Sequence record: ON568341.1
DNA: 64,000 nucleotides
Reading direction: 5' to 3' (one strand)
Origin: Escherichia phage UE-S1
Program-made: the position numbers and the translations under genes
Shown here: in pieces, positions 1,856 to 18,024 of the stretch
How positions within the stretch are numbered: the stretch's first letter is position 1
Layout: the number at the start of each line of letters is the position of its first letter
The notes under the pieces: model-generated
The model's input: the letters and a program-made list of their open reading frames with translations, nothing else
The model's database searches: none
Told to the model about the DNA's origin: nothing

Positions 1856-2371
1856 ATGACACGCATTAACTTAGTACACGTTAAAGAACTTGCAGACCAA
1901 CATCTGATGGCTGAATATCGTGAACTACCACGTGTATTTGGTGCTGTACGAAAACACGTTCACGCACGTAAGCGTGTACGTGATTTCAAAATTAACAGTA
2001 CTTATCTGTTAGGTTCAGGTCATGTGACCTTCTTTTACGACAAGTTGCTGTACTTACAGAAGCGTCATATCGATATTGTCAACGAATGTTTGCGTCGTGG
2101 GATGAAGATTCAAAATACTGAAGTAAACGACATTAGCAGCTTCCCTGCTGAGTTTTGTAATGACTATGTACCATCGGAGTCAGAGATTAAAATGTCTCGT
2201 GATCGTTTGATTGAGAAGCTCCAGATGAAGCCTACGTGGTATAAGTTTACTGACGTTGAACGTCCACAGTACGTTAAAGATATTCAGGACGTAAGTAGTA
2301 ATATAGAATCTAGTACGGATATGTTAGACGAAATTGAAGAACAAATCAAAAATGAAATGAATAATTATTAA
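1856..2371 (+). CDS. denV: pyrimidine-dimer DNA glycosylase / endonuclease V (T4 DenV-like)
   Basis: [52 protein letters not shown] matches T4 endonuclease V as recalled; GAGGA SD. Confidence 0.9.
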
Positions 2372-2409
2372 AGGAAAGGATTGACTTCGGTCACATAAAG
2401 GAACATAAC

Positions 2410-2604
2410 ATGTTATTAGTATATTCAAAGCGTTTCTGGATTTCTTTTATTGTACTATCGCTAATCGGCTTCGGTGTGAGTATGCTCTTTTCGTGGAATG
2501 AATTGGGCACATGGTATTATGAAGTCCCGTGGTACATGAAGATAGCTCCTTGTTACGCGGCTTTGTTCGTATCATTCCTTATTGTTGTCTTCAGCGAGGA
2601 TTAG
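2410..2604 (+). CDS. small membrane protein (64 aa)
   Basis: AAGGAA SD-like; two hydrophobic segments. Confidence 0.45.
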   Translation: MLLVYSKRFWISFIVLSLIGFGVSMLFSWNELGTWYYEVPWYMKIAPCYAALFVSFLIVVFSED

Positions 2605-3139: not shown

Positions 3140-3913
3140 ATGAACCGTACAGAGAAAGCACTCCAAATTGAAAAGAACTTCAACTCCATGATGGCAGCAC
3201 TGGAATGTCTTCTTGATACACAAACTAACTCGATCAACTCGCTGATCGTTTCTGGTAAAGGTGGTGTTGGTAAAACTTACAATGTTGACCAACGGTTACA
3301 GAAAGCTGATGACAACTTTGAAATCGACTACAAGAAAATCAGTGGTAAAGTAACTACTGTAGGTCTGTACGAAGCACTGTATCGTTCACGTCATGCTGCT
3401 TCAGTACTGTTACTTGACGACGTTGATATCTTCTCTGATGAAACGAATATTGATTTGCTTAAAGCTGTATTGGATACTTCTGAGAAGCGTGTAGTGTCTT
3501 ATGCTACATCTGCGAAGTACCTGGAACAGCAGGGTATCCCTAAACAGTTTGAATTCCGTGGTAAAGTAATCTTTCTGACTAACAAAAATCTGTCACAGAT
3601 TGCTAAAGGTAAAAGCAGTTTAGCACCACACATTGATGCACTGATTACTCGTAGTATCTTTGTTGACCTGCAACTGTTCACCAACGAAGAAGTTATGATT
3701 CACATTGAGAATATCATGAACAAAACTAACATCCTTGAGAACAATGGTGTTAACAAAAATGGTTGTAAAGCAATTTTGAACTGGATGTTGAGTAATGAAG
3801 ATCGTCTGCGTTCACCTTCACTGCGTATGCCAGTACTGATCGCTGGACTGTATAATAAATTCCCATATGATTGGGAGTCAATGGCAGAGAATATGTTCCT
3901 TGAGAAAATTTAA
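3140..3913 (+). CDS. P-loop NTPase
   Basis: Walker A SGKGGVGKT, Walker B-like VLLLDDVD; GAGGA SD. Confidence 0.6.
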   Translation: MNRTEKALQIEKNFNSMMAALECLLDTQTNSINSLIVSGKGGVGKTYNVDQRLQKADDNFEIDYKKISGKVTTVGLYEALYRSRHAASVLLLDDVDIFSDETNIDLLKAVLDTSEKRVVSYATSAKYLEQQGIPKQFEFRGKVIFLTNKNLSQIAKGKSSLAPHIDALITRSIFVDLQLFTNEEVMIHIENIMNKTNILENNGVNKNGCKAILNWMLSNEDRLRSPSLRMPVLIAGLYNKFPYDWESMAENMFLEKI

Positions 3914-3921
3914 TTTCCATA

Positions 3922-3950
3922 TTGACAGTACTAACAATGTGTAGTATTAT
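3922..3950 (+). promoter_or_regulatory. sigma70-like promoter for membrane-protein array
   Basis: TTGACA(3922-3927), 17 nt spacer, TATTAT(3945-3950). Confidence 0.5.
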
Positions 3951-3966
3951 ACACTGGAGACACCTG

Positions 3967-4308
3967 ATGCGTATATTTTTTGAATCTAATATAATGCTTG
4001 GTATTACACTGATATACATGTTTGTATTCTTGTTTTATCATTCAATTGTAATTAGTCTTTGGTATTTTAAAAGGAAAATGGTTTTTAAATTATATTCGTA
4101 TGATAATGTATTCTTAGTTGTATATAGTATCATACAAGGTGGATTTGTTCTATTTGGTGTTATGACGTATGTGATTTATAGATTACAAATTGATAACACA
4201 CCATACATTACACAGTATGTTGTGTTCACAGGACTAATCGTATGGTTGTTGGTGTGTATCATGTATTTCATAATTAAAGCTCGTGATAGAATTAAAGGGG
4301 AGTTCTAA
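3967..4308 (+). CDS. small polytopic membrane protein, tandem family member 1
   Basis: ATG 3967 with GGAGA SD; paralog of 4308..4646 (LGITLIYMFVFLFYH..WYFKRK). Confidence 0.55.
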   Translation: MRIFFESNIMLGITLIYMFVFLFYHSIVISLWYFKRKMVFKLYSYDNVFLVVYSIIQGGFVLFGVMTYVIYRLQIDNTPYITQYVVFTGLIVWLLVCIMYFIIKARDRIKGEF

Positions 4309-4646
4309 TGTTAGAATTTTTTAAATCAGATGTGATGCTTAGTATTACATTGATTTATATGTTTGGGTTTTTATTTTATCATATACTAGTTGTAGTTCTA
4401 TGGTATTTTAAAAAGAAAATAGTTTTCAAACTGTATCCACCTAGTAATATTTTATTGTTTCTTTACACACTTATTCAAGGTATGTTTGTGATTGTTGGTG
4501 TTATCACTCACTTAATTTATTGTACTAATCCACATTTAAACTCGATAACACAATATGTTGTTTTCTTTGGGTTGTTCATTTGGTTAGTTGTATACTTAAT
4601 CCATCTCATTATTCATGGTAGAGATAAAATTCGCGGAGACTTCTAA
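4308..4646 (+). CDS. small polytopic membrane protein, family member 2
   Basis: TAATG stop/start overlap; hydrophobic; C-term GRDKIRGDF parallels ARDRIKGEF of member 1. Confidence 0.55.
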   Translation: MLEFFKSDVMLSITLIYMFGFLFYHILVVVLWYFKKKIVFKLYPPSNILLFLYTLIQGMFVIVGVITHLIYCTNPHLNSITQYVVFFGLFIWLVVYLIHLIIHGRDKIRGDF

Positions 4647-4993
4647 TGTTTGAAGCTTATCTTGAGTTTTTAAGGAGTAGTCCAGTTGCACATTCACTTG
4701 CAGGGATTATTCTAACAACTTATGTAACATTTTGGGTAGTTATGTTTATAGGATGGTATTTTAAACGACAATTCTATAAACGTAATGTTGAAGATTTTAT
4801 GAATTCTGCAATTAATCAATCGTTGTTTGCATCAACATTTATTGCATGTATTGTAGCAACACTCACAGGAAAGGTACTACCAGCTTTTTCCGCAGTTTAC
4901 GGTACACTTGGGATGATATGTTTAACTTTTATATTGACCATTAAAATTTGTTGTGTTATGATTGAACTTCGAAACAAGATACCGGAGGAATGA
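4646..4993 (+). CDS. small polytopic membrane protein, family member 3
   Basis: TAATG overlap; WYFKRQ motif; hydrophobic. Confidence 0.5.
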   Translation: MFEAYLEFLRSSPVAHSLAGIILTTYVTFWVVMFIGWYFKRQFYKRNVEDFMNSAINQSLFASTFIACIVATLTGKVLPAFSAVYGTLGMICLTFILTIKICCVMIELRNKIPEE

Positions 4994-5328
4994 TGGAGTA
5001 CTTTATTGATTTACTACCGTGGTATATGAAAGTTAGTACTTTGTACTATATTATTAGTGCTGGATTCTATTTCCTGATGTGGTTCTTTAAACGACCAATT
5101 TCAGTATTCATCTCTGACAACCTACTGCAATTAAAATTACACGCATGGTTTGGTATGTCCATGATTATGCCAATTATTCATTACTCGATGATTAGTAATG
5201 GTTTTCGTTCTAGTGGTGAGCCAGTTGTAATTGTATTTTATTGGGGTTCAACTATAGTATATGTCGGTTTTCTATTGTTCCCGATCATTCATAAATTACG
5301 TGCTAAAGTTCCTGATGCGAGGTACTAA
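4990..5328 (+). CDS. small polytopic membrane protein, family member 4
   Basis: ATGA overlap; hydrophobic; WFFKRP motif. Confidence 0.5.
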   Translation: MMEYFIDLLPWYMKVSTLYYIISAGFYFLMWFFKRPISVFISDNLLQLKLHAWFGMSMIMPIIHYSMISNGFRSSGEPVVIVFYWGSTIVYVGFLLFPIIHKLRAKVPDARY

Positions 5329-5642
5329 TGGATATAGTAACATTGATTTACACGTTGTATTCATTCTATTTTATTATGTGTTGGGTTGGATTTGTATTTG
5401 TACTCAAGATGTTTGATTATGTTGAAAGACAGATAAAAGATTTTTGTATTCCTTTTATCGGTTCAACCATTATTAGTGTTTCTTGTGTGTATTTTTTGGT
5501 GTTTGATCCACCAGATAACACTGCGATGATTGACTTCATGTTACTACCAACCACTATTATTTTTTTATGTAGTCTGATGCCACCTATTAGTCGTGGATTG
5601 ACTGAATTTAGACGCAAACAAAAGCGTAAAAGAGGGATGTAA
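5328..5642 (+). CDS. small polytopic membrane protein, family member 5
   Basis: TAATG overlap; hydrophobic. Confidence 0.5.
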   Translation: MDIVTLIYTLYSFYFIMCWVGFVFVLKMFDYVERQIKDFCIPFIGSTIISVSCVYFLVFDPPDNTAMIDFMLLPTTIIFLCSLMPPISRGLTEFRRKQKRKRGM

Positions 5643-6010
5643 TGGAAATTGCTCTTATTATCTTAACTGCTATGCTGTTTATTAGTACTGTGGTTATAAT
5701 TGGTAAATTCTTTTGTGTATCATTTTTAGAAACGGTATACGATGAAATTGCTGATGATTATGAATTACAAGCCGGATTTTTTATTACGTATTGGCTTAGT
5801 TTATTTTGTCTAGTCATTGCTTGGATTTTGCATATCTTTAAATGGGGTATGGTAGATGGTGATCCTGTCATGGGAATTATTGTTCTAGTGTTTGGTATCC
5901 TTGGTGGTGCAGTGCATAATCTGATGGTTATCTGGCAAACTGTTCAATATGTTTTGGTTCCCTATTTTGAAAAGATGCACAGTACAATTAAAAAACGTAA
6001 ACGAGGTTAG
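5642..6010 (+). CDS. small polytopic membrane protein, family member 6
   Basis: TAATG overlap; hydrophobic. Confidence 0.5.
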   Translation: MEIALIILTAMLFISTVVIIGKFFCVSFLETVYDEIADDYELQAGFFITYWLSLFCLVIAWILHIFKWGMVDGDPVMGIIVLVFGILGGAVHNLMVIWQTVQYVLVPYFEKMHSTIKKRKRG

Positions 6011-6011
6011 T

Positions 6012-6374
6012 ATGAACGGGATAGAATTATCTTTCATTGGTCAATTACTAGTAATGGTGAATACTTTCATTTTCTCATTTATTGCATTGATGTGCATTGG
6101 AAAGTATTTCCACAAACGACCATTATCAAATTTATATGATGTAATAAAAAAGAAATATAGTCCAGCACACACTGTACTTATTAGTAGTTTCAATTTTGGG
6201 TTTGTTGTATTAATAATTGGATTGTTAACATCAACGTCGAATGTACTAATCTTCGGTCTTATGATTTGTTCATTGGTATTAGCAGCAATTATATGTTGTT
6301 TAGTACTGCACCTTGTAGTACTATTATATATAAAGCTCGTTGAAATCCATCAACGTTTAGGGATGAGGAAATAA
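6012..6374 (+). CDS. small polytopic membrane protein, family member 7
   Basis: ATG 6012 with GAGG SD; track ORF 5949 trimmed. Confidence 0.5.
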   Translation: MNGIELSFIGQLLVMVNTFIFSFIALMCIGKYFHKRPLSNLYDVIKKKYSPAHTVLISSFNFGFVVLIIGLLTSTSNVLIFGLMICSLVLAAIICCLVLHLVVLLYIKLVEIHQRLGMRK

Positions 6375-6375
6375 T

Positions 6376-6747
6376 ATGAGTTACCGTGAGATATTTTCCA
6401 TTATTTCAATTATTATGTTCAGTACTGGAACATTGGTGTGGGTATTATATTTTTTCTGTGTAGCACCAGTGTATAATATGTTATGTAATATTAAATCAAG
6501 TGCTGGATATATTACTTTTATGGTCTTTATGGGATATTATTGTCTAAGCATTTTAGGTGTTGTTTTGGTTGTTATATTAGATGTTGGACCGAATAGGGAT
6601 GGTCTGAAAATGTATGAGTTATTAACTATGTTTGGGTGTATGATACCAACAGCACTAATGTTTGTAGCTATTGGTGGTGGATGCATAAAGTTATACAATT
6701 ATTTAAAATCTATTCATCATTCCATTCACAATAAGCGTATGTCATAA
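6376..6747 (+). CDS. small polytopic membrane protein, family member 8
   Basis: GGAAA SD-like; hydrophobic. Confidence 0.5.
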   Translation: MSYREIFSIISIIMFSTGTLVWVLYFFCVAPVYNMLCNIKSSAGYITFMVFMGYYCLSILGVVLVVILDVGPNRDGLKMYELLTMFGCMIPTALMFVAIGGGCIKLYNYLKSIHHSIHNKRMS

Positions 6748-6788
6748 TAAAAATCCAGTACTGAATAGTACTGGACTAATAAGGAGTT

Positions 6789-7439
6789 ATGATGAAATCA
6801 AAATTAGGTTTGTTTTATGGAAACTACTTCATTAAACAGCGTAAATTCATAAAAAAATACTTCTCTACAGAGAAATCTAGTCCTCTAATTTTTAAAAGAC
6901 CAAAATATAATTTTTACTTAGCTGGTGCTAAACAGTCTAAGAAATTCATTACATTTTTAAATAAAAACAAAATTAAAGCTTCTTATGTTGAAACCAGAAA
7001 GAACTCATCAATAATTCCTGGTGATTTTATTGAATACGGATGTTTCAATATTAAGCACAATGATAACACATACTTTATGGATATTGATTGTAATACATCA
7101 AATCTTTTTAACATTGTAATAAATCCATCAAAACAATATAATGTTTATGGTGATTCAATTATCAAATTAATAAGAAACAAAGATTGGTTTGATTTTGAAA
7201 TAAATGTTTTAGATGAAAACTTTGATGAAGTTCCAGTTAATCCTGAAATATGTGATATATTAAACAGTTTAAAAGGTAGTAGCTACAATATACCATCTGA
7301 TTTAATGTTCCAGTACTCATTAATCCATAAAGATATTGAACAGTACATTATGTGTGCTAAAATCTTGAATTATCTGTATGATGAATTTAAAATGAGTTCT
7401 AAAATAACAGCATATACTCTTTATAATATTTCTATATAA
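6789..7439 (+). CDS. hypothetical protein (216 aa, Lys/Asn-rich)
   Basis: AAGGAG SD; long ORF ending at bidirectional terminator. Confidence 0.5.
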   Translation: MMKSKLGLFYGNYFIKQRKFIKKYFSTEKSSPLIFKRPKYNFYLAGAKQSKKFITFLNKNKIKASYVETRKNSSIIPGDFIEYGCFNIKHNDNTYFMDIDCNTSNLFNIVINPSKQYNVYGDSIIKLIRNKDWFDFEINVLDENFDEVPVNPEICDILNSLKGSSYNIPSDLMFQYSLIHKDIEQYIMCAKILNYLYDEFKMSSKITAYTLYNISI

Positions 7440-7450
7440 TTTAAAATATT

Positions 7451-7476
7451 AAAGCCAGCACAAGAGCACTGGCTTT
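7451..7476. terminator. bidirectional terminator hairpin between convergent genes
   Basis: AAAGCCAG-10 nt loop-CTGGCTTT flanked by A/T runs. Confidence 0.5.
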
Positions 7477-7480
7477 AATA

Positions 7481-8626
7481 TTATTTTTTCCAAGGAAGTA
7501 ACGAAGTTGGAATCTTGATAGGTATATTTGATGCAGCAACATCAGGAAAATTTGCATCTCCACAAACATACAAATTATCGATTTCGTCAATCAATAATGT
7601 ATAGTTGTAACTTCTACAAAAACCGCTTAAGCCTCTTCCCTCTAATGCAGATAAATTCATTTCAGTGAATTGAGTTATATATGTTTCATTTGAACCAACA
7701 CCACATTGACCATTAGCATTTATACCACAAGTAAGCAATTTATTATTGTTTTGAATTACACATGATGGTCCAGCAAGGTTCGTACCTAGTTCACCTACAA
7801 CATTAACTTCACCTTTTAATGATAAATTTTGGATCACTGTACTCATAGGGACACGCGATGTATTTCCAACACCTGCTTGTCCTGAGCCATTAGTGGATGC
7901 AACTTTAACAGTACCGTCATTAAGAAAAATATAAGATGTTTCGATGGTATTAACTGCTTGTGTAGCTGTTGTTATTGTCGTATCCTGCTTGAATTTAAGT
8001 ACATTTGTTGTTGTTGAACCAGATATAAATGTAGCACCTGCGTACCAATAGGTTCCATCTTGAAGTACTAAACCAGTACTTCTAATTGAACACCCTGCAC
8101 TGCGAACATTTTCTATATGACTATATGTAAAGGTTGATACGATTGAAGATTCACCATTACCGAACACCCCACCAGTACCTGCACCACAGAAAAACCATTT
8201 ACCGTTTTTCAAAAATACACGCATACAAGCAGAAATAACCACACTATCAATATCACTTGCAGCTACACCAAAATCGGTAAAGAAATGAGTTATATCAATC
8301 CAATTACCACCAGTATTTGATGGGAGATGGGGAATTACAACTCTAGTCCCTGTGTACCAGATTGTATCATCATCTTTAATAACAAGAGTACCTTGAACAC
8401 CACCCCAATACCTTGTTACATTTGTATTAACAAGCCTCCACTCAGTAGATGATTCAGTGGAGCCATTACCACCTTGACCATAAGATGATGAGCCGTGCCA
8501 GTATAAATTTCCATTTTTATCTAAATAAAATTTTGCATCAGCCGAACATTGCAATCTGTATTTGAATACGGTTTTTGGTGCTGGTGCAATATTTGCATAT
8601 TTTAGCATTCTACCAAAAGGTAACAT
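7481..8626 (-). CDS. RCC1-like beta-propeller protein with MLPFGRM tag (paralog 9)
   Basis: N-term MLPFGRMLKYANI; repeats such as CGINANGQCGVGSNET; AAGGAG SD. Confidence 0.7.
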   Translation of the reverse strand: MLPFGRMLKYANIAPAPKTVFKYRLQCSADAKFYLDKNGNLYWHGSSSYGQGGNGSTESSTEWRLVNTNVTRYWGGVQGTLVIKDDDTIWYTGTRVVIPHLPSNTGGNWIDITHFFTDFGVAASDIDSVVISACMRVFLKNGKWFFCGAGTGGVFGNGESSIVSTFTYSHIENVRSAGCSIRSTGLVLQDGTYWYAGATFISGSTTTNVLKFKQDTTITTATQAVNTIETSYIFLNDGTVKVASTNGSGQAGVGNTSRVPMSTVIQNLSLKGEVNVVGELGTNLAGPSCVIQNNNKLLTCGINANGQCGVGSNETYITQFTEMNLSALEGRGLSGFCRSYNYTLLIDEIDNLYVCGDANFPDVAASNIPIKIPTSLLPWKK

Positions 8627-8704
8627 AATTTTTCTCCTTCATTCATTATACTGTATTTAATCCAATTAAGAAAAGCTAGTATCAAGTACTGGCATTTAAA
8701 AGAA
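8627..8704 (-). promoter_or_regulatory. intergenic cassette: terminator hairpin + TAAATA..TATAAT promoter + SD
   Basis: minus strand reads GCCAGTACTTGATACTAGC hairpin ... TTAAATACAGTATAATGAATGAAGGAG-ATG. Confidence 0.5.
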
Positions 8705-9880
8705 TCAAATTGTCGGAAGTGGGAATTCTTTCATCACCGATGAACTGTTTGCTGCAATATTATCAGGAGATTTACCAGCGTAGTATAATTTATTATTAAT
8801 AAACATATATAGCGTTGCATCGTTCCCTGCTACAAGAGAATTACTTTTCTTAAAAATAACCCCTGGGGGTAAAATAGCTTCAACAAATGAACCTGATTCT
8901 CGTGTTGAATTGTTTGCCAATTGACCATTATTATTATAACCAGTACTATAAATTTTACCTGAACTATAATACACAAGACCACGTGTACTAATGTTTTCTA
9001 TACGAATGAATTCACTATCGTCCGGTACTGTAGTTGATAGAACTGGGTATAACTTATAAGCTGATGTTACATTATTATTACCCAATTGACCATAACCTTG
9101 AAAGCCTAGTGCATACATAGGACATGATTCTGGTGTACCTTTTGTTATAATACCAATATAATTCGAACTACAAAAAATATCCACTGCTTCTACAACATTT
9201 GTACCCTTATATTGAACCCAAGGAAATACATATGATTGTTGTTTGCCATTACCCAAAACACCGGAAGTTGTTGTACCTGTACGCCACATTGTATCATCAA
9301 GTTTAATAATCCAGTTAGCAGTTGTTATAGTTGAACAGAATTTTTTAACATTATCAACCAAGTATGTAAATTTATTATAATATGATGCAGTGTTTATTCC
9401 AAATTTAGCACCAGTATTGTCACCTAACAAATATAAACTATTATCTGTACCTAAAATCAAAACATAATCATGACCCACGTATATCTTTTTGATTTTTGAA
9501 ATACCAAATTGTGTAAAATAGCTGGTACATTCAGTGAATATTGTTACATGATTTGATGTATTATTACCTAGCCATTTATCTAAACCACTATAAAAGAACC
9601 TATCATCATTTGTGCGTATTAGACAAAAAGAATTATTTGTACTGCACCAGAAATCTTTGACATTACTATATATTTTTGTCCATTCAGTTACTTGATTAGT
9701 ATGACCTAAACCAAAAATTCCACCATTTTGTAGTCCCATAGCCCATATTGAACCATTTTTATCAAGAAGCATTGTGCATGTAAATGAATACCCACACGCT
9801 GGAGTAACTAATTTAACAAAATTGGGAATATATGGTAAAACTTTATTCCCATAATTCACCATTCTTCCAAAAGGTAACAT
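8705..9880 (-). CDS. RCC1-like beta-propeller protein with MLPFGRM tag (paralog 8)
   Basis: N-term MLPFGRMVNYGNK; STGYNNNGQLANN, LGFQGYGQLGNNN repeats. Confidence 0.7.
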   Translation of the reverse strand: MLPFGRMVNYGNKVLPYIPNFVKLVTPACGYSFTCTMLLDKNGSIWAMGLQNGGIFGLGHTNQVTEWTKIYSNVKDFWCSTNNSFCLIRTNDDRFFYSGLDKWLGNNTSNHVTIFTECTSYFTQFGISKIKKIYVGHDYVLILGTDNSLYLLGDNTGAKFGINTASYYNKFTYLVDNVKKFCSTITTANWIIKLDDTMWRTGTTTSGVLGNGKQQSYVFPWVQYKGTNVVEAVDIFCSSNYIGIITKGTPESCPMYALGFQGYGQLGNNNVTSAYKLYPVLSTTVPDDSEFIRIENISTRGLVYYSSGKIYSTGYNNNGQLANNSTRESGSFVEAILPPGVIFKKSNSLVAGNDATLYMFINNKLYYAGKSPDNIAANSSSVMKEFPLPTI

Positions 9881-9953
9881 ATTCTCTCCTTATTCATTAT
9901 AATATATATTTAATACAAATAATAATGCCAGTACTCAAATACTGGCATTATTA
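9881..9953 (-). promoter_or_regulatory. intergenic cassette: terminator hairpin + promoter + SD
   Basis: GCCAGTATTTGAGTACTGGC hairpin; GTATTAAATATATATTATAATGAATAAGGAG. Confidence 0.5.
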
Positions 9954-11144
9954 TTACAATTGTCTAGGTGTATCCAGAACATATCTATTTGTGCTAGGAC
10001 CGCCATCATCATAAGTTCCGGTTGAATATATATTTTTCATATCAGCAGTTAGAAATGTACGATACGAACCTCTATATATTTTTATTTTATCATACATATT
10101 ATATGTAATTTGTGCTGGCATTGGACATATAGTAAATCTTCCAATAGTCCCCACTGAACCTACCCCCAATGAGCCAGCATAACTACTCGCATTTAAACCA
10201 GTTGCATATACACCAGAACTCGTAACTAGTATACTAGATTGTGATGGGTATCCAGTATGAATTGAATACAAAGTTCCAGGTGGTAATGTCGTACTATTTC
10301 TCCCTAATACAGCAAGTGCCGAACTGGATGTGGTATTATTACCCCATGCACCATTACTTGCTAAACCACCAACTAGGAACTGACGTACACCCGTACTTGG
10401 ATTTTCCACCAAAGCACTGACTGAACCCATTGAGCATCCAGTGTATTGTAACGTTTTTGTGTATGTTGTACTTGGCTGATATAAAGTATATTCATTATAT
10501 AAAGTCCATGTAGTACTGGAACTTATACCGGATGTACCACCACCAATATATAAATTATTTTGTTTATCAAACAACATTACACAGTTATTTGTTGACATTA
10601 TTTGTGCAATATCAACATTAGGTGTTACTGCTTTTACAAATGAACCATCTGTTATTTGTTGAGTTTTTCCAGTACCATCAGCGAATTGTCTAGCCCCACT
10701 CCAACCAGTACTCCATATTGTATTATTATCCATTAAGAAAGTAAACCACGTAGTACCTGCATACATCTGTTTAATTGAAGTACTTGAACTTTGTTTGTAC
10801 AAATTTTCAATATATTGGTTATAACTTAAAAATGATGTAGTACTGGTTGGTAAACCAATATGACTACCAAATCCACAATAGAAATAATTTAAGTCATTAT
10901 CTTGAACTAACAAAGTTCCTTGTGTGATCCAGCAATCATTAACGTTTTCTCTAATTAATGTCCATGTTCTTAATGCAGTGTTGTTTCCTCTCCCAAACTG
11001 CCCAAAACTATTATTACCTCGTGCATATAGTTGACCATCAGTATAAAGTACAACAACATCAGTATCGGTTGTTAGTATTTTCTTAATTTGAAGTGGGATA
11101 GGTACAATATTCCCGTACTTAACCATTCTTGCAAAAGGTAACAT
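9954..11144 (-). CDS. RCC1-like beta-propeller protein with MLPFGRM tag (paralog 7)
   Basis: N-term MLPFARMVKYGNI; ARGNNSFGQFGRGNNT repeat. Confidence 0.7.
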   Translation of the reverse strand: MLPFARMVKYGNIVPIPLQIKKILTTDTDVVVLYTDGQLYARGNNSFGQFGRGNNTALRTWTLIRENVNDCWITQGTLLVQDNDLNYFYCGFGSHIGLPTSTTSFLSYNQYIENLYKQSSSTSIKQMYAGTTWFTFLMDNNTIWSTGWSGARQFADGTGKTQQITDGSFVKAVTPNVDIAQIMSTNNCVMLFDKQNNLYIGGGTSGISSSTTWTLYNEYTLYQPSTTYTKTLQYTGCSMGSVSALVENPSTGVRQFLVGGLASNGAWGNNTTSSSALAVLGRNSTTLPPGTLYSIHTGYPSQSSILVTSSGVYATGLNASSYAGSLGVGSVGTIGRFTICPMPAQITYNMYDKIKIYRGSYRTFLTADMKNIYSTGTYDDGGPSTNRYVLDTPRQL

Positions 11145-11215
11145 ATTTTCCTCCTTTATTCATTATACTATATTTAATCAAAAAGAAAAGCCAGTATCAA
11201 GTACTGGCCTATATT
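11145..11215 (-). promoter_or_regulatory. intergenic cassette: terminator hairpin + promoter + SD
   Basis: GCCAGTACTTGATACTGGC hairpin; GATTAAATATAGTATAATGAATAAAGGAGG. Confidence 0.5.
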
Positions 11216-11953
11216 TTAGACTGAATTGTTAGGATAATATCTCCCCCTTCCCCATATTATTCGCACAGCACCACCACCAGCAGCCGTATAAGAAGAATTA
11301 TCCCATATACTACCACCACCACCATACCTCTTACCAGCACCACCACTACCAGCACCACCATTATATGAACCACCGTAGCTACCACCAATACCATTAGCAC
11401 CTTGAACAATGATACCAGTACCACCACCCGTACCAATGAACGAGGTACTATAGAATGTACCACCCCCACCGCCGCCACCAGCACCATTTTCACCAGTGAT
11501 TGCATCTCCGTTACCACCTTTACCAGTGTAGCCACCAGCACCACCACCAATGACTGCACCACCACTTACACCAGTGTTGCCACCATTACCACCACCATCA
11601 TTAATAGCGTTAGCAGCTTTTCCACCTAGTCCACCAACCGTATATGCACCAGTGAAGCTAACACATAGTTTTTCAGTTCCACGATATAAACCGTTTTCAA
11701 CTGCTGTAGTAGTGTTGGGATGTGTAAGAGAAACACTTAAGTACTCACCACCAGAAACCGGAATATTATTACGCCACGATAAGCCGCCACCAGCACCACG
11801 TTGACCACCCGGCGAAATAACACATACTGATATTTCGGTAACGCCAGCAGGAACTGTAAATTGTGTTGTTCCTATTGTCGTGATTAATTGTTCACCATGT
11901 GGCTTATATTCAATTTTATTCCCGAACTTAACCATTCTTCCAAAAGGTAACAT
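11216..11953 (-). CDS. glycine-rich protein with MLPFGRM tag (paralog 6, non-propeller)
   Basis: N-term MLPFGRMVKFGNK; long GGxGG runs (..GGGNGGNTGVSGG..GAGGGGGGG..). Confidence 0.65.
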   Translation of the reverse strand: MLPFGRMVKFGNKIEYKPHGEQLITTIGTTQFTVPAGVTEISVCVISPGGQRGAGGGLSWRNNIPVSGGEYLSVSLTHPNTTTAVENGLYRGTEKLCVSFTGAYTVGGLGGKAANAINDGGGNGGNTGVSGGAVIGGGAGGYTGKGGNGDAITGENGAGGGGGGGTFYSTSFIGTGGGTGIIVQGANGIGGSYGGSYNGGAGSGGAGKRYGGGGSIWDNSSYTAAGGGAVRIIWGRGRYYPNNSV

Positions 11954-12024
11954 AATTCCCTCCTTTATTTGTTATACTATATTTAATACAAAAAGAAAAG
12001 CCAGTACTCAGTACTGGCATAATG
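11954..12024 (-). promoter_or_regulatory. intergenic cassette: terminator hairpin + promoter + SD
   Basis: GCCAGTACTGAGTACTGGC hairpin; GTATTAAATATAGTATAACAAATAAAGGAGGG. Confidence 0.5.
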
Positions 12025-13167
12025 TCAATAAGTATCCCAAGGTAATGGTGTCTTCCTAAATCCATACCTGGTTGTGCTCGCACCATCACCAGCAATGTAT
12101 CTACCTATACCACATTGGTATAACTCTGTACTACTACATATAGCACCACCTATAGTACCACTACTCCACTGAATTATATTAGAATATGTTATTGGTAAAT
12201 CACTACATTTAGTATATACAGCAACGGTAGAAGCACCACTAATACCACCAAACATACTTCGCTTAGCACCAGTGTAATATATACCATCTGGACTCATAAA
12301 TGCAGAGGTGTAAGTTGTACTGCAATCCACTGGACTTCTTATTGTATTAAGATCGCCTGGATATGTTCTGACACCAAAGGTGTATACATTACCATCAGTT
12401 GTAATACCATTACCTAACTGCCCACTGTTTTGTCCACCACATGTAAGCAACGATGCAGAACCAGAAACAATTGCAGTAGCATTATACGAAGTGCCCATTG
12501 CAATAGAAGCACCAGACAATAGTTTTGGAGTAACAATAGCTGTTGTATTACCCTGGCCTAATTCACCATTTGTGTTTCGTCCCCATGCGTATATGGAAGT
12601 AGTATCCAACCTACATAGTACTGAACCATAACTAAACGTATATCGCATGTCAATTACCGCAGAAGGCAAATTAACCTTAGTTGCAACACTAATAACACCA
12701 CCAGTAACACCACTGTTTGCGTTCATGTTACGACCATATGCATATAAAGAACCATCTGAAGTTTTAATATGCATCATACCATCTGTACAATATAATGCAT
12801 CTATACTCTCCACCGCAACCGGACCCATACTGGTAGTTATATCGGTCCACCCAAGAGTAGTAGTACTAGAAATTAAGTTATTTCCTGCGTATAGTATTCT
12901 ATTATTATTAGTAACTACAACTGTATATCTGGCAGTAACACCAATTAATCGAACATCAGTATATATCTTAGACCACGCACCTAATGAATTGGTGTTTGCA
13001 TCCAAAAAGCCCAACTGCCCATCTGTATTGTATCCAATGCCCCATACATCACCTGCACTGTCCAATAACACTTCATGTGAAAATCCAATCTTAAAATCTT
13101 TTATTGTAGGAACTACCGGATCTGGTGCAATATTCCCGTACTTAACCATTCTAGTAAAAGGTAACAT
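12025..13167 (-). CDS. RCC1-like beta-propeller protein with MLPFGRM tag (paralog 5)
   Basis: N-term MLPFTRMVKYGNI; WGIGYNTDGQLGF, WGRNTNGELGQGN, CGGQNSGQLGNG repeats. Confidence 0.7.
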   Translation of the reverse strand: MLPFTRMVKYGNIAPDPVVPTIKDFKIGFSHEVLLDSAGDVWGIGYNTDGQLGFLDANTNSLGAWSKIYTDVRLIGVTARYTVVVTNNNRILYAGNNLISSTTTLGWTDITTSMGPVAVESIDALYCTDGMMHIKTSDGSLYAYGRNMNANSGVTGGVISVATKVNLPSAVIDMRYTFSYGSVLCRLDTTSIYAWGRNTNGELGQGNTTAIVTPKLLSGASIAMGTSYNATAIVSGSASLLTCGGQNSGQLGNGITTDGNVYTFGVRTYPGDLNTIRSPVDCSTTYTSAFMSPDGIYYTGAKRSMFGGISGASTVAVYTKCSDLPITYSNIIQWSSGTIGGAICSSTELYQCGIGRYIAGDGASTTRYGFRKTPLPWDTY

Positions 13168-13240
13168 AATTCCCTCCCTTATTCATTATAATATATTTAA
13201 TACAAAAAAGAAAAGCCAGTACTTGAGTACTGGCATTATG
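13168..13240 (-). promoter_or_regulatory. intergenic cassette: terminator hairpin + promoter + SD
   Basis: GCCAGTACTTGAGTACTGGC(13215-13234); GTATTAAATATATTATAATGAATAAGGGAGG. Confidence 0.5.
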
Positions 13241-14350
13241 TTATTTTGGTAAATCAATTTTAGTAAAGACTGCAACATCCTCGCTTGCCCCAGGAATGGC
13301 GTAATACGATCCAGTACTATATACATCTCCGTCTTTGGTTAATATTGATGTTAAACCATCACTAAAAAGAACATCCCTAATCTCACTAACTTCAACGGGT
13401 AATTGTAAATTAGTAGCACTATATATTGCACCAGTTTGAGAATTGTTTAATCCCAAACCACGGTTCGCCCCAACACCCTTCTGATATGTACTAGTAATTA
13501 TCATTTGTGTAGCAGTATTTAAGGCAGGTGAATTCGTCATAAACAACGGAGAACTATTAGGCAAAGTACTTGCAGGAACTGCACGAAATGAAGTTGTATC
13601 TGAACTAAGAAAGTTTGGCGTTTGACCACATACGAAATATGATGTACCATTATAGTAATTAAATGCATTACCACCAATGACTGCATCGATTACACCAGAG
13701 CTACGTAATCCCCACGTGTTAATTTGTGTTCGGTTCCCCGTGCCATGCTGACCCCTGTCATTCCACCCAGAACTATATAACTTATTATCTAATGTAATAT
13801 ACATACTGTCATTTGCATTCGTCATTACTTTACGCACATTAGTAGCACATTGAGTTAATGTGTAAATTGATGATGAACCAATACCTAAAGCACCACGATA
13901 TCCATTAGCTCCTGCACCATAGAGTACTGAACTAGTGCTAAGTACAAATATTAAACCATACGAACATACAATATTAGCAATTTCACTCACTGGTATAGCA
14001 CTGGTAAACCAATTAGTTCTTTCAACTAATACTGTGCTGTAAGAAGTAGTTGTAGACGATGTGAACCAATATGTTTCCCCTGATGTCCATATAGTATTAT
14101 CATTTTTAATAATAACAAGTGCACGATCACCTACGAAAAAATTAGAAACATCTGCACTTACTAATATCCATGAAGATACCGTGTTTTTATTACCATTTCC
14201 AGATTCACCACCTTGATTTCTACCTATGTAATATAAATCATGTGAATCAGTTAATAAGAATTGACCCTGTGTAGATGCACCAACTTTAATTATATTTTTA
14301 GGACCAGGTACAATATTCCCATAATCAAACATTCTTACAAAAGGTAACAT
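13241..14350 (-). CDS. RCC1-like beta-propeller protein with MLPFGRM tag (paralog 4)
   Basis: Start set at conserved MLPFVRMFDYGNI (track ORF extends 5 codons upstream); SSGWNDRGQHGTGN repeat. Confidence 0.65.
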   Translation of the reverse strand: MLPFVRMFDYGNIVPGPKNIIKVGASTQGQFLLTDSHDLYYIGRNQGGESGNGNKNTVSSWILVSADVSNFFVGDRALVIIKNDNTIWTSGETYWFTSSTTTSYSTVLVERTNWFTSAIPVSEIANIVCSYGLIFVLSTSSVLYGAGANGYRGALGIGSSSIYTLTQCATNVRKVMTNANDSMYITLDNKLYSSGWNDRGQHGTGNRTQINTWGLRSSGVIDAVIGGNAFNYYNGTSYFVCGQTPNFLSSDTTSFRAVPASTLPNSSPLFMTNSPALNTATQMIITSTYQKGVGANRGLGLNNSQTGAIYSATNLQLPVEVSEIRDVLFSDGLTSILTKDGDVYSTGSYYAIPGASEDVAVFTKIDLPK

Positions 14351-14425
14351 AACTAAAATCTCCATATAATAATTATAATGTATTTACAAAAAAATACCAG
14401 CACATATTTCAGTACTGGTATAATG
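14351..14425 (-). promoter_or_regulatory. intergenic cassette: terminator hairpin + promoter + SD
   Basis: CCAGTACTGAAATATGTGCTGG hairpin; TGTAAATACATTATAAT...GGAG. Confidence 0.45.
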
Positions 14426-15607
14426 TTATGGTAAAATAATAGCTTGTAACGAACTCATACCCAATGTTGGAACACTCGCCTGTGGTGCTGGAGAATTCAA
14501 TTTTGGTGATGAAACCGCATATGACATTCCTGAACCCAAATCTGGATCAAAAACTACAGCACAATAATTCCCACTATATATAAGTCCATTCTTGTATCCT
14601 TGTGCACTTTGAATGCATTTCGTGAACGTACCAATATCTGTAGTGGCATTTATTAAGTTCCTCCCACGATAACCGCAGGTGTATATGAAATTATCATCGC
14701 CTATGTACATACTAGAATCCCCAGAAGAACTACATAGATACGACATATAAGCACGCATGTTTTTAGGAGCAACTGACAATGTACCTGCATAGAATTTATT
14801 ATTCGAACCCGTAATATTACCATCACCCAATGCACCAAAACTTCCCCAGCCAGTACCGTAATATCTCTTATCACTCAAAAATATAATACAGTTGTTATTA
14901 CACATCTTGATTTGATATATCAATGAAGGATCAATCCCAGGGAATGATTCAGTGAATGTTAGAACAGCCGGATCAGTACTAGCATTACATTGATGATATG
15001 TATTAGTACCAGCGGACAAGATTGTTCCATTAGCTAACAGAATTCTCGCAGTACCAGTACCAGCAGTACAAGCAACTGCACTTCCTGCACTTCCGGTGTA
15101 TATTTGTCTGAAAGTAAAGAAACCAACAGTTTTACTTCCCTGCCCACTCCAACCAGTATTATCAACTCCACACGCCCATACTGAACCATCTTGCATGATC
15201 ATCATTACACCAAAGCGTTCTATTGAAATATAAACAATCTTCGTTGTATCAACTGCACTAAATCTAGAAGTTATATCAGTCCATACCTTAACACTTACCG
15301 CCGTCGCACTGGAAGTAGGATCTTCACCAGCTATCATTATCCTCCCATTGTTAGTAAGATACATTGTCTGACTATAACCAGTACTACAAAACTTAACACT
15401 ATCAGTCTCTGGAACTTTTAACCACTCGTTGTAACGTGTTACGTTAGTGTTATTACCTAACTGATAATAGTTATTCATCCCAGATACATATAACACACCA
15501 TCCTTTATTAAACTATAAGTCGCACTATAGTCACTACAGGTATAACGTGTACCCACAGGTGGCTCAACGACGTTCCCGTACTTAACCATTCTCCCAAAAG
15601 GTAACAT
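14426..15607 (-). CDS. RCC1-like beta-propeller protein with MLPFGRM tag (paralog 3)
   Basis: N-term MLPFGRMVKYGNV; TGWGSFGALGDGN, MNNYYQLGNN repeats. Confidence 0.7.
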   Translation of the reverse strand: MLPFGRMVKYGNVVEPPVGTRYTCSDYSATYSLIKDGVLYVSGMNNYYQLGNNTNVTRYNEWLKVPETDSVKFCSTGYSQTMYLTNNGRIMIAGEDPTSSATAVSVKVWTDITSRFSAVDTTKIVYISIERFGVMMIMQDGSVWACGVDNTGWSGQGSKTVGFFTFRQIYTGSAGSAVACTAGTGTARILLANGTILSAGTNTYHQCNASTDPAVLTFTESFPGIDPSLIYQIKMCNNNCIIFLSDKRYYGTGWGSFGALGDGNITGSNNKFYAGTLSVAPKNMRAYMSYLCSSSGDSSMYIGDDNFIYTCGYRGRNLINATTDIGTFTKCIQSAQGYKNGLIYSGNYCAVVFDPDLGSGMSYAVSSPKLNSPAPQASVPTLGMSSLQAIILP

Positions 15608-15680
15608 AATAAAATCTCCGTAATTAAATTATATAGTATTTACAAAAAATACCAGTACATATTTCAGTACTGACCTATTA
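15608..15680 (-). promoter_or_regulatory. intergenic cassette: terminator hairpin + promoter + SD
   Basis: CAGTACTGAAATATGTACTGG hairpin; TGTAAATACTATATAAT...GGAG. Confidence 0.45.
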
Positions 15681-16802
15681 TTAAAAGGGCAACGGTAACT
15701 CAGTAAAAGTACTTACGTCCGGTAAACCATACATTAAATTAGCATCACCACAGTAATACCACTTCGTAGAATCATGTACCACCGATAAACGCTGTGCACA
15801 TAACACTTCCTGTATGTCATTAAACACCATCGGGACTAACTCATATGTATCTGCAAATGAAGATTCACTACCACTCGCATGAAAAGTATTTGTCCCAGCA
15901 TAAAATAACTGATTAGTGTTCTTACCCACAGCAAATGTTATCAAAACCCCATCATTCTCCCATAAAGAAGAAAACTTATCAACACTACCAGAAAGCTCTG
16001 TGTAAGTACTCGTAATGGCACTCGCCGCCGCCGCATTACCCATCTGTTTATTCAAGTTCTGTCCAGCAATAAAATATCTCGTTCGTGCACTAGAATCAGT
16101 ATATAATAACCCAGTGTTCGTAGTCATCATTCCAATGTCCTTAATCGTCATATCAGTCTGTGAATAACTTAGATACGAAGTTAAATTAACATTATTACCC
16201 AACGAACCGTTAGAACTCATGCCACAACGATGTAATATACCACTTGTATCAACGTAGATAGTACTAACTAAACTCGTATACAACTCTTGTACATTATTCG
16301 CAATAAACACAGCAGTCGCCTTATTACTAACCCCACCAAATGATAGGTTATTATCAAATCCCTTAGCGTATAATTGATTATTAGTAGTCAATAATCCAAT
16401 CGTGTAATAAGACATTTTCATATCCCTTACTGTACTCAAATCTACTGCCCCAAATTGATACGTAACATCTGTCCATTTGAAAATCTGTGCACTACCAACA
16501 CCACCCGTTTCAAACCATTTGTCACCACAGTACAATATGCGATTATCCTTAGTAAAGATAACTGTTAACAATCCACTACCACACGCAAACTTTACATCAC
16601 TTCTAACCTTCGTCCAATCAAGTACATAGGTAGTGGTGTTATTACCTATACCTAACTTGCCATAACGGTTATAACCACGCACCCATAAATCACCACTCTT
16701 AGTAATTAATAGTAATGCGTCTCCTGTACTTATTATTCGAAATCCCGAACTAGGATCAGGGGCAATATTCCCGTACTTAACCATTCTCCCAAAAGGTAAC
16801 AT
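15681..16802 (-). CDS. RCC1-like beta-propeller protein with MLPFGRM tag (paralog 2)
   Basis: N-term MLPFGRMVKYGNI; YNRYGKLGIGNNT, MSSNGSLGNN repeats. Confidence 0.7.
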   Translation of the reverse strand: MLPFGRMVKYGNIAPDPSSGFRIISTGDALLLITKSGDLWVRGYNRYGKLGIGNNTTTYVLDWTKVRSDVKFACGSGLLTVIFTKDNRILYCGDKWFETGGVGSAQIFKWTDVTYQFGAVDLSTVRDMKMSYYTIGLLTTNNQLYAKGFDNNLSFGGVSNKATAVFIANNVQELYTSLVSTIYVDTSGILHRCGMSSNGSLGNNVNLTSYLSYSQTDMTIKDIGMMTTNTGLLYTDSSARTRYFIAGQNLNKQMGNAAAASAITSTYTELSGSVDKFSSLWENDGVLITFAVGKNTNQLFYAGTNTFHASGSESSFADTYELVPMVFNDIQEVLCAQRLSVVHDSTKWYYCGDANLMYGLPDVSTFTELPLPF

Positions 16803-16875
16803 ATTTTCCTCCTTTATTCATTATACTATATTTAATACAAAAAGAAATGCCAGTATCAAGTACTGGCATATTAAT
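16803..16875 (-). promoter_or_regulatory. intergenic cassette: terminator hairpin + promoter + SD
   Basis: GCCAGTACTTGATACTGGC hairpin; GTATTAAATATAGTATAATGAATAAAGGAGG. Confidence 0.5.
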
Positions 16876-18024
16876 TCATTGTATAAATGACATATCTACT
16901 TCTGTATAATTAAGAACGTTCTGTCCAGAAATACCACCCATTACTACTATTGCAAGGCCACAATAATATAATTTTCCAGTATCCGTAAGTATAAGTGATC
17001 CAGATGGACTGCGTACCAAATCACACGAACTATTAAAAGAAGTATAAGAAGGAGTATAGGAGTACTGATTATTATTATTACCAACACCTAATTGCCCAAA
17101 CCCATTCGATCCAGAAGCATATAGAACTTCATCTGCTTTGACAATATGTGATGCCATGTTACCAACACAAGTATATAGAGTATAAACTCCTGAACTCAAT
17201 AATGTCGGAGTTTTATATTGTATATCTGTAGATGTAGAAGTACCACCTGTACCAAATTCGTTCCCATATTGTGCACCGAACTGTTTGCCACAAGCGTACA
17301 AATTATTATCCGATTTGATAAAAAATGTACTCTGATAACTTACATTAAAATCTATAACATCCGAAGAAATCATCGTCACCCCAGTAATAGAAGTTTGATT
17401 ACCCGTGCCCAACTGGTAGTAATAGTTAAAACCACAACCCCATAAAGTATTATCTTCTCGCAAATAAATGTTACCAACTGCCTTTTTAACCGAAGTTATA
17501 GTATCTACTCTTTTGAATGTGTTAAAAGAATTAATGTTTGTACCATCACCAAATGATGATATGTTCGATATATTGTTAACTCCACAACAATACAATGTAC
17601 CATCTTTTGTTATCAAATTCACCTTCATATCATAAAAACTACTCATGTATTTTATATCAGAAACATTAACACCACTTGATGTTATCCACGTAGTACAGTC
17701 CGTCCACAAAGTTTTTCTATCAGTTACACCAGTGAATGCCTTCGTGTTACCAGTGATAAAAACTTTTCCAGTACCTTTCTCTTCATACAATTGACAATCA
17801 CTACTGTTATCTTCCAATAGAACTCGTTTAACATTCTCCGCACAAAGAATAAATTTACTCGATGCTACACCTGTACCAGTACCCCAATTCGTCGCAGAAG
17901 ATGCATACAACTTATCAGTATAAGTATCATGAAGATACATAGAATCACTGGAATATATTTTAAAACGCCCTTCTTTCTCAGGTATAATATTCCCGTACTT
18001 AACCATTCTCCCAAAAGGTAACAT
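16876..18024 (-). CDS. RCC1-like beta-propeller protein with MLPFGRM tag (paralog 1)
   Basis: N-term MLPFGRMVKYGNI; GSNGFGQLGVGNNN, FNYYYQLGTGNQT repeats. Confidence 0.7.
   Translation of the reverse strand: MLPFGRMVKYGNIIPEKEGRFKIYSSDSMYLHDTYTDKLYASSATNWGTGTGVASSKFILCAENVKRVLLEDNSSDCQLYEEKGTGKVFITGNTKAFTGVTDRKTLWTDCTTWITSSGVNVSDIKYMSSFYDMKVNLITKDGTLYCCGVNNISNISSFGDGTNINSFNTFKRVDTITSVKKAVGNIYLREDNTLWGCGFNYYYQLGTGNQTSITGVTMISSDVIDFNVSYQSTFFIKSDNNLYACGKQFGAQYGNEFGTGGTSTSTDIQYKTPTLLSSGVYTLYTCVGNMASHIVKADEVLYASGSNGFGQLGVGNNNNQYSYTPSYTSFNSSCDLVRSPSGSLILTDTGKLYYCGLAIVVMGGISGQNVLNYTEVDMSFIQ

Follow-up and report, generated by a model that had tools for sequence, protein, structure and literature searches.

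The genome of Escherichia phage UE-S1 carries an array of eight adjoining plus-strand genes that, judged by sequence comparison, is a real and conserved, clade-specific multigene family of small, predicted inner-membrane proteins. The array (G1 to G8; positions 3967-6747) was studied in a 64,000-nucleotide (64-kb) stretch of sequence record ON568341.1, referred to here as the window, as a follow-up to a first-pass annotation of the same DNA. Our preferred reading, to which we give a probability of about 0.4, is that the genes encode translationally coupled, early inner-membrane paralogues of Asteriusvirus that co-assemble and act through their cytoplasmic face. Early timing, co-assembly and biological role are what we infer; membrane takeover, superinfection immunity and docking of a neighbouring NrdC.10-like NTPase are the candidate roles.

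An open reading frame (ORF) listing together with direct reading gives eight genes of 104-123 amino acids (aa), each predicted to encode three transmembrane (TM) segments. These are G1 (3967-4308; 113 aa), G2 (4308-4646; 112 aa, with a WYFKKK box and the tail GRDKIRGDF), G3 (4646-4993; 115 aa, GWYFKR, tail LRNKIPEE), G4 (4990-5328; 112 aa, MWFFKRP, tail LRAKVPDARY), G5 (5328-5642; 104 aa, tail FRRKQKRKRGM), G6 (5642-6010; 122 aa, IGKFFCV...VYDE, tail KKRKRG), G7 (6012-6374; 120 aa, IGKYFHKRP, tail IHQRLGMRK) and G8 (6376-6747; 123 aa, MSYREIFSI..., tail IHNKRMS). The first-pass annotation had also described eight tandem genes, but its upper size of 128 aa belongs to a TTG-started ORF (3922-4308) that would begin within the -35 box of the promoter described below; the ATG at 3967 is the G1 start annotated in phage G17. 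G4 starts with a double methionine (111 aa if counted from the second ATG), and its protein is identical to the database entry UE-S1_198; the G7 protein is also identical to a database entry. In some public assemblies G7 is called from an ATG at 5949 (5949-6374, plus strand, 141 aa), overlapping G6 by 62 nucleotides (nt). The ATG at 6012 is the more likely start given its GAGG ribosome-binding site and its agreement with the G17 annotation.

All eight genes have a ribosome-binding site of the GGAG/GAGG type 5-9 nt before the start codon. Overlap had been claimed for every junction and is found at five of the seven, as TAATG (G1/G2, G2/G3, G4/G5, G5/G6) or ATGA (G3/G4), but G6/G7 (TAGtATG) and G7/G8 (TAAtATG) are separated by 1-nt spacers. 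The coding strand is T-rich across the array (AT skew -0.19), which is expected from the codons used for hydrophobic residues.

Several lines of evidence point to a shared membrane architecture. Each of the eight proteins has three Kyte-Doolittle hydropathy peaks and a grand average of hydropathy of 0.65-1.17. Summed over seven window proteins, one representative per paralogue lineage, lysine and arginine residues total 52 in loop 1 and the C-terminal tail vs 8 in the N-terminus and loop 2, a bias that by the positive-inside rule predicts three TM helices with the N-terminus outside and the C-terminus inside (N-out/C-in). AlphaFold2 models agree in helix number, with helices at residues 13-38, 55-73 and 81-111 plus short N-terminal and loop helices in G3 (mean predicted local distance difference test score, pLDDT, 72.5) and at 3-38, 42-67 and 79-122 in G8 (pLDDT 75.3). 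For five of the eight orthologues in Klebsiella phage Muenster, the depositors' TMHMM remarks likewise give three TM domains (TMDs), N-out and C-in. The first-pass description of hydrophobic, polytopic proteins with basic C-terminal tails is borne out by these data, but its three to four TM segments narrow to three in each protein.

The predicted architecture begins with a short periplasmic N-terminus and a TM1 that ends in an aromatic-F-(K/C)(R/K) box. This would be followed by a basic cytoplasmic loop 1 with a short interfacial helix, then TM2, a short periplasmic turn, TM3 and a basic cytoplasmic tail opening with (R/H)-x-(K/R)-(I/L). Two anchors are common to a 45-sequence alignment drawn from seven phage lineages, namely the aromatic-F-(K/C) box that closes TM1 on its cytoplasmic side and the (R/H)-x-(K/R)-(I/L) opening of the tail, which reads R-x-K-I-P-(D/E) in paralogue lineages B and C. 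Mean pairwise identity is higher in the predicted cytoplasmic parts than in the periplasmic parts (0.38 vs 0.26; Mann-Whitney p=7e-4), and TM1 is better conserved than TM3 (0.38 vs 0.18). Among close relatives, TM2 and periplasmic loop 2 vary most.

By profile comparison, all eight genes are one family, made up of seven old paralogue lineages plus one recent duplicate (G1/G2). To define orthologous lineages, the array was compared with those of A4, a divergent Asteriusvirus phage, of the Alcyoneusvirus Klebsiella phage Muenster and of the metagenome contigs L007 and L009. The lineages are referred to as A (G1 and G2), B (G3), C (G4), D (G5), E (G6), F (G7) and G (G8). Profile-profile comparison joins them in one connected graph, with E-values of 4e-9 for B-C, 1e-6 for B-D, 1.4e-5 for A-B, 2e-5 for E-G, 2.8e-5 for E-F and 1.4e-4 for C-E. 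Nine of the 21 lineage pairs reach E<=1.6e-3, compared with 0.0098 for the best of 42 reversed-sequence controls, and hidden Markov model (HMM) matches across lineages agree with these links. When the family HMM was run over the 64-kb window, only the eight array ORFs matched (E 1e-22 to 1e-27; next best 0.18). The paralogy of G1 and G2, already seen in the first pass, holds at 55% identity over 110 aa (E=1.6e-44). Orthologues of G2 are present in A4, contig L009 and Muenster, the most conserved paralogue is G4 (65% identical to its A4 orthologue), and gp530 of Salmonella phage Munch is recognisable as a G6 orthologue.

Conservation of the ORFs in related genomes had been named in the first pass as one test of the array, and the array is kept, in synteny, in >30 phage genomes. 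At the DNA level, window positions 3900-6800 are 90-92% identical to Asteriusvirus jumbo coliphages (UB, 121Q, G17, Sharanji and others) and ~82% identical to a second subgroup (vB_Ec-M-J and fEgEco12). All eight genes are under purifying selection, with ratios of nonsynonymous to synonymous substitution rates (dN/dS) of 0.09-0.47 against G17. Together, dN/dS and synteny indicate that the array does not consist of chance ORFs, a possibility that was rejected on these grounds.

Gene content and order differ between phage groups. The window, 121Q and G17 have eight genes in the order A A' B C D E F G, and PBECO4, slurp01 and vB_Ec-M-J have the same type of array without A' (G1), giving seven. 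A4 also has seven genes (A B C D E F G), contig L007 has six (B C D E F G), contig L009 has seven (B A C D E G X) and Muenster/RaK2 has eight (B B' A C D E G X). Shorter arrays of four and five genes are found in Munch, where types E and X are recognisable, and in Serratia phage BF (Eneladusvirus), respectively. The order C-D-E is constant in every lineage assigned by HMM, and A-B-C-D-E-F-G is held in E. coli phages.

Relatives of known function were sought widely. Scans of all eight proteins against Pfam, NCBIfam and PADLOC gave sub-threshold matches only: Pfam had no match at E<1 for any of them, and the best PADLOC matches, PycTM (E=0.059) and PDC-M18B (E=0.044), are insignificant. Seven of the eight match PHROGs at E 1e-48 to 1e-68, in families of function unknown (phrog_19454, 19046, 27396, 33258, 26405 and 27618), one of which is named 'membrane protein'. 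For example, G1 matches phrog_19454 (E=5.7e-48), G3 phrog_19046, G5 phrog_33258 and G8 phrog_27618; G7 has no PHROG family at significance. PDB and fold searches returned generic helical bundles only. Word-indexed searches of 5.8 billion proteins gave 29 and 17 matches, and 1.84 billion representatives searched exhaustively with an HMM yielded 20 clusters, those inspected being family members. No bacterial or non-RaK2-like homologue was found in these searches, as every match whose source or contig was examined belongs to a RaK2-like genome or contig. Members already in databases include 121Q gp224-232, UE-S1_198, RaK2_00310, CPT_Muenster_554-561 and Serratia BF gp384-389, and the Muenster and BF annotations already say '(putative) membrane protein'. 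No description of the array was found in the literature on 121Q, RaK2, CBB, UE-S1, fEgEco12 and phAPEC6 or in a jumbo-phage comparative review. That these genes are a single family, in a conserved array tied to an NrdC.10-like NTPase, was stated in no paper found, and sequence records treat the members as unrelated hypothetical proteins.

The expression signals around the array are those of a putative single, early transcription unit. A sigma70-type (early-type) promoter, TTGACA-17 nt-TATTAT, lies at 3922-3950 on the plus strand, 16 nt before the G1 start codon. It had been proposed in the first pass and is supported by a match to 11 of 12 consensus positions and by its retention in G17. The window holds 16 sites of the form TTGACA-N16-18-TAWWAT, all on the plus strand, vs 0.78 expected by chance. 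The operon is closed by a GC-poor hairpin, TCCAGTACT-GAAT-AGTACTGGA, at 6752-6777 (minimum free energy -16 kcal/mol, z=-3.6), which has a T-run on its minus-strand side only; the G17 annotation places a terminator at the equivalent site. In the related phage CBB, RpoD-like promoters occur in the presumed early, host-takeover region, and the late promoter motif of the clade is ATAAATA (PMC5259590). A further promoter-like site within G3 (4934-4962, plus strand), TTGACC-17-TATGAT, has an extended TG and agrees with the consensus at 10 of 12 positions. Lying 28 nt before the G4 start, it may act as an internal promoter or have arisen by chance.

Both the promoter and the hairpin contain a short palindrome that recurs across the window. 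CAGTACTG is present in 68 copies vs ~0.7 expected from base composition (for example at 3926-3932, 6420 and 6756), is dense between ~19.7 and 42.4 kb and, in many of the 16 consensus promoters, falls within the spacer. The hexamer AGTACT is present in 257 copies vs ~22 expected, and there are ten AGTACT-N3-8-AGTACT hairpins in the window, the array-closing hairpin among them. The AGTACT palindrome could serve as a motif for regulation or recognition that is specific to the phage.

The closest neighbour of the array is a gene for a T4 NrdC.10-like P-loop NTPase (3140-3913, plus strand), with 40-42% tblastn identity to T-even nrdC.10 and a weak AAA_16 match. This NTPase of 255-264 aa, ~40% identical to T4 NrdC.10, is the upstream neighbour of the array in every lineage examined, synteny having been checked in the window, A4, Muenster, L007, L009, Munch and Serratia BF. 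The two genes abut or overlap in L007, L009 and Serratia BF and are separated by 10 nt in Munch; two small soluble ORFs lie between them in Muenster, and one small 2-TM ORF in A4. In the window, the 53 nt separating the NTPase gene from G1 showed no hairpin. The NTPase is present in >1,000 T4-like and other phages, and no description of its function was found in the literature on nrdC.10. Separately, the NTPase of the window is 99% identical to that of phage ph0011 and 60% identical to that of G17/121Q (synonymous divergence, dS, 1.7), forming a recombination mosaic with the array. The ORF between the NTPase and the array in A4 encodes 72 aa and is mis-annotated as 'endonuclease V'. It differs from a 64-aa ORF with two hydrophobic segments in the window (2365-2601, plus strand), between a denV-like gene and the next promoter, which gives no match to the array family (E=0.27).

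Under the preferred reading of co-assembling early paralogues, host RNA polymerase would transcribe the operon soon after infection, and the overlapping stop and start codons would couple translation such that the paralogues are made together. They would then enter the host inner membrane and there, most probably, associate into a hetero-oligomeric assembly, whose constrained surface (TM1, loop 1 and the C-terminal tail) would face the cytoplasm. Such an assembly could alter the membrane on behalf of the phage, by blocking the entry of secondary phage DNA or by stabilising the membrane, and/or it could dock the always-adjacent NrdC.10-like NTPase. A bolder form of this idea is a virus-specific hetero-oligomeric machine of four to eight 3-TM subunits plus the NTPase, for example one that is ATP-driven and acts in gating or docking at the inner membrane early in infection. 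We regard this form as distinctly doubtful; if true, it would be an NTPase-coupled 3-TM machine without counterpart among described phage or bacterial systems.

A number of observations weigh against co-assembly through a cytoplasmic face. Copy number ranges from four to eight, with lineage-specific gains (G1/G2; Muenster gp554/555) and a loss (L007 lacks A), and gene order differs in Klebsiella-type phages, where B precedes A and G precedes X; this variability argues against a machine of fixed stoichiometry. Substitutions among close relatives are spread fairly evenly over the protein regions (Fisher p=0.29), and the conserved basic residues may be topogenic signals only, not a binding surface. 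The adjacency of the NTPase could be inherited synteny, and the nrdC.10 region of T-even phage RB14 is without the array, its nrdC.9, nrdC.8 and nrdC.7 not being family members. The early timing is a prediction from a promoter consensus. Finally, no homology to any protein of known function was found in Pfam, PHROGs, PADLOC, NCBIfam, PDB or fold searches, and none in these sources supports the exclusion, lysis-timing or anti-host-defence roles raised in the first pass.

The foremost alternative, possible although we lean against it, is that the paralogues act independently, as separate early membrane proteins with different targets, and represent an arms-race family rather than a complex. Their targets could, with similar reservation, be the inner-membrane entry routes of competing phages, as for superinfection exclusion (Sie) or Imm-like proteins, or membrane-acting host defence effectors. 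Lineage-specific duplications and losses fit this picture, as does divergence that is faster than that of the NTPase: between the window and A4, the array proteins are 29-45% identical (65% for lineage C), compared with 59% for the NTPase. Identity to G17 is also mosaic within the array (96% for G3, 98% for G6, 83% for G2 and 80% for G7), suggesting recombinational shuffling, and the variability of TM2 and periplasmic loop 2 points the same way. However, orthologous lineages are kept with C, D and E in constant order, dN/dS is <0.5 for each gene, tight translational coupling is more typical of co-made subunits, conservation is highest in the cytoplasmic rather than the periplasmic parts, and no match to PADLOC or any other defence-related family was found. 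Known small inner-membrane proteins offer partial parallels. T4 Imm, P22 SieA and HK97 gp15 are used by phages against secondary infection and are encoded by single genes, Imm itself having two TMDs. The array proteins are alike in being small, predicted inner-membrane proteins but are multigene and without homology to these, and no Pfam, PHROG or NCBIfam match to Sie families was found. The immunity proteins of pore-forming colicins and microcins (E1/Ia-type) are ~100-115 aa long with three TM segments, and their genes tend to occur in tandem arrays. Size, TM number and enterobacterial setting are similar, but the predicted topology of the array proteins is opposite to that of ImmE1, which is N-in/C-out. 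Colicin immunity families gave no Pfam match at E<1, and no toxin gene is annotated in the array flanks. A narrower version of the preferred reading makes the array a membrane anchor or regulator of the NrdC.10-like NTPase, with the tails recruiting the ATPase to the inner membrane. The constant upstream position of the NTPase, the hairpin-free gap and the conservation of both cytoplasmic face and R-x-K-I-P tail motif fit this sub-case, but we consider it unlikely, as the NTPase is found in so many phages, including in RB14 without an array, and the array has its own promoter in 121Q-type phages.

Two further alternatives are a channel and a holin role. It seems improbable that the proteins assemble, as homo- or hetero-oligomers, into a viroporin-like ion channel that tunes ion content or membrane potential at an early stage of infection, since the structural matches are all generic helical bundles and neither a channel signature nor homology was found. 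The proteins also resemble class I holins such as lambda S105, which have ~100-130 aa, three TMDs, an N-out/C-in topology and a short, highly basic cytoplasmic C-tail; size, topology, tail and the double-methionine start of G4 all fit a set of holins, antiholins or pinholins that time lysis. Moreover, the endolysin of the clade, 121Q gp532, is SAR-type, with an N-terminal TM (signal-anchor-release-like) domain, and no holin is reported for CBB (PMC5259590). In contrast to class I holins, the array comprises eight paralogues instead of one gene, has a longer, structured loop 1 and lies outside a lysis cassette, with 121Q gp224-232 away from gp532 and no lysozyme or spanin gene in the flanks. 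Its promoter is of the sigma70 early type and not the ATAAATA late motif of the clade, and eight early-made holins would be expected to kill the host too soon. No holin family was matched in Pfam (E<1) or PHROGs (E<0.1), and the sole 'Holin' fold match (Foldseek) has E=4.2 and a probability of 0.07. We hold a holin function to be very improbable, and because of the early-type promoter and the distance from the endolysin, lysis timing is the least likely of the functional suggestions made in the first pass.

A structural role in the virion was also considered and rejected. The virion proteome of phAPEC6 lists gp003-010 and then gp035c, with nothing between; the array genes are estimated by genome position to fall within this gap (gp numbers not mapped), and none is listed, although proteins this small and hydrophobic easily escape detection by mass spectrometry. 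The gp003-010 entries are called 'DNA condensation protein', the name given to RCC1-like genes in related records. These are not DNA-condensation factors and may be fibre or hair components.

In the window, the neighbours of the array are the NTPase gene, the denV-like gene, a 216-aa ORF and RCC1-like genes, and convergent RCC1-like genes are usually found downstream of the array. The 216-aa ORF (6789-7439, plus strand) lies between the array hairpin and the RCC1-like genes and has no Pfam, NCBIfam or PADLOC match. In vB_Ec-M-J an RCC1-like gene directly follows G8, so the 216-aa ORF looks like an insertion that stranded a minus-strand-oriented terminator. Further downstream, nine paralogous genes of ~245-396 aa form a run on the minus strand (7481-18024). 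The first of these (7481-8626) matches the RCC1-like repeat family, as its counterparts are annotated in G17 and vB_Ec-M-J. A different gene, encoding a DUF1190 (E. coli YgiB-like) lipoprotein (Pfam E=4e-32), follows the array in A4 (7465-8016), Muenster (4603-5190) and contig L007 (5417-6001; each position in its own sequence), with a ClpP-like gene next to it in Muenster. No DUF1190 gene was found anywhere in the 64-kb window.

RaK2/121Q-like jumbo phages are in development for therapy, with >80% of their genes having no assigned function. The array is conserved, selected and probably early-expressed; it was detected in each of the four RaK2-like lineages that were examined, and no genome outside them was found to have it. 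As a single operon of ~2.8 kb, it is a tractable target for studying how jumbo phages reshape or shield the host inner membrane, and it offers a route to the role of the widespread T4 NrdC.10-type NTPase. A complex of the paralogues would be an unusual case of a viral membrane assembly that arose through gene duplication; separately acting paralogues would instead represent a family of exclusion or anti-defence factors.

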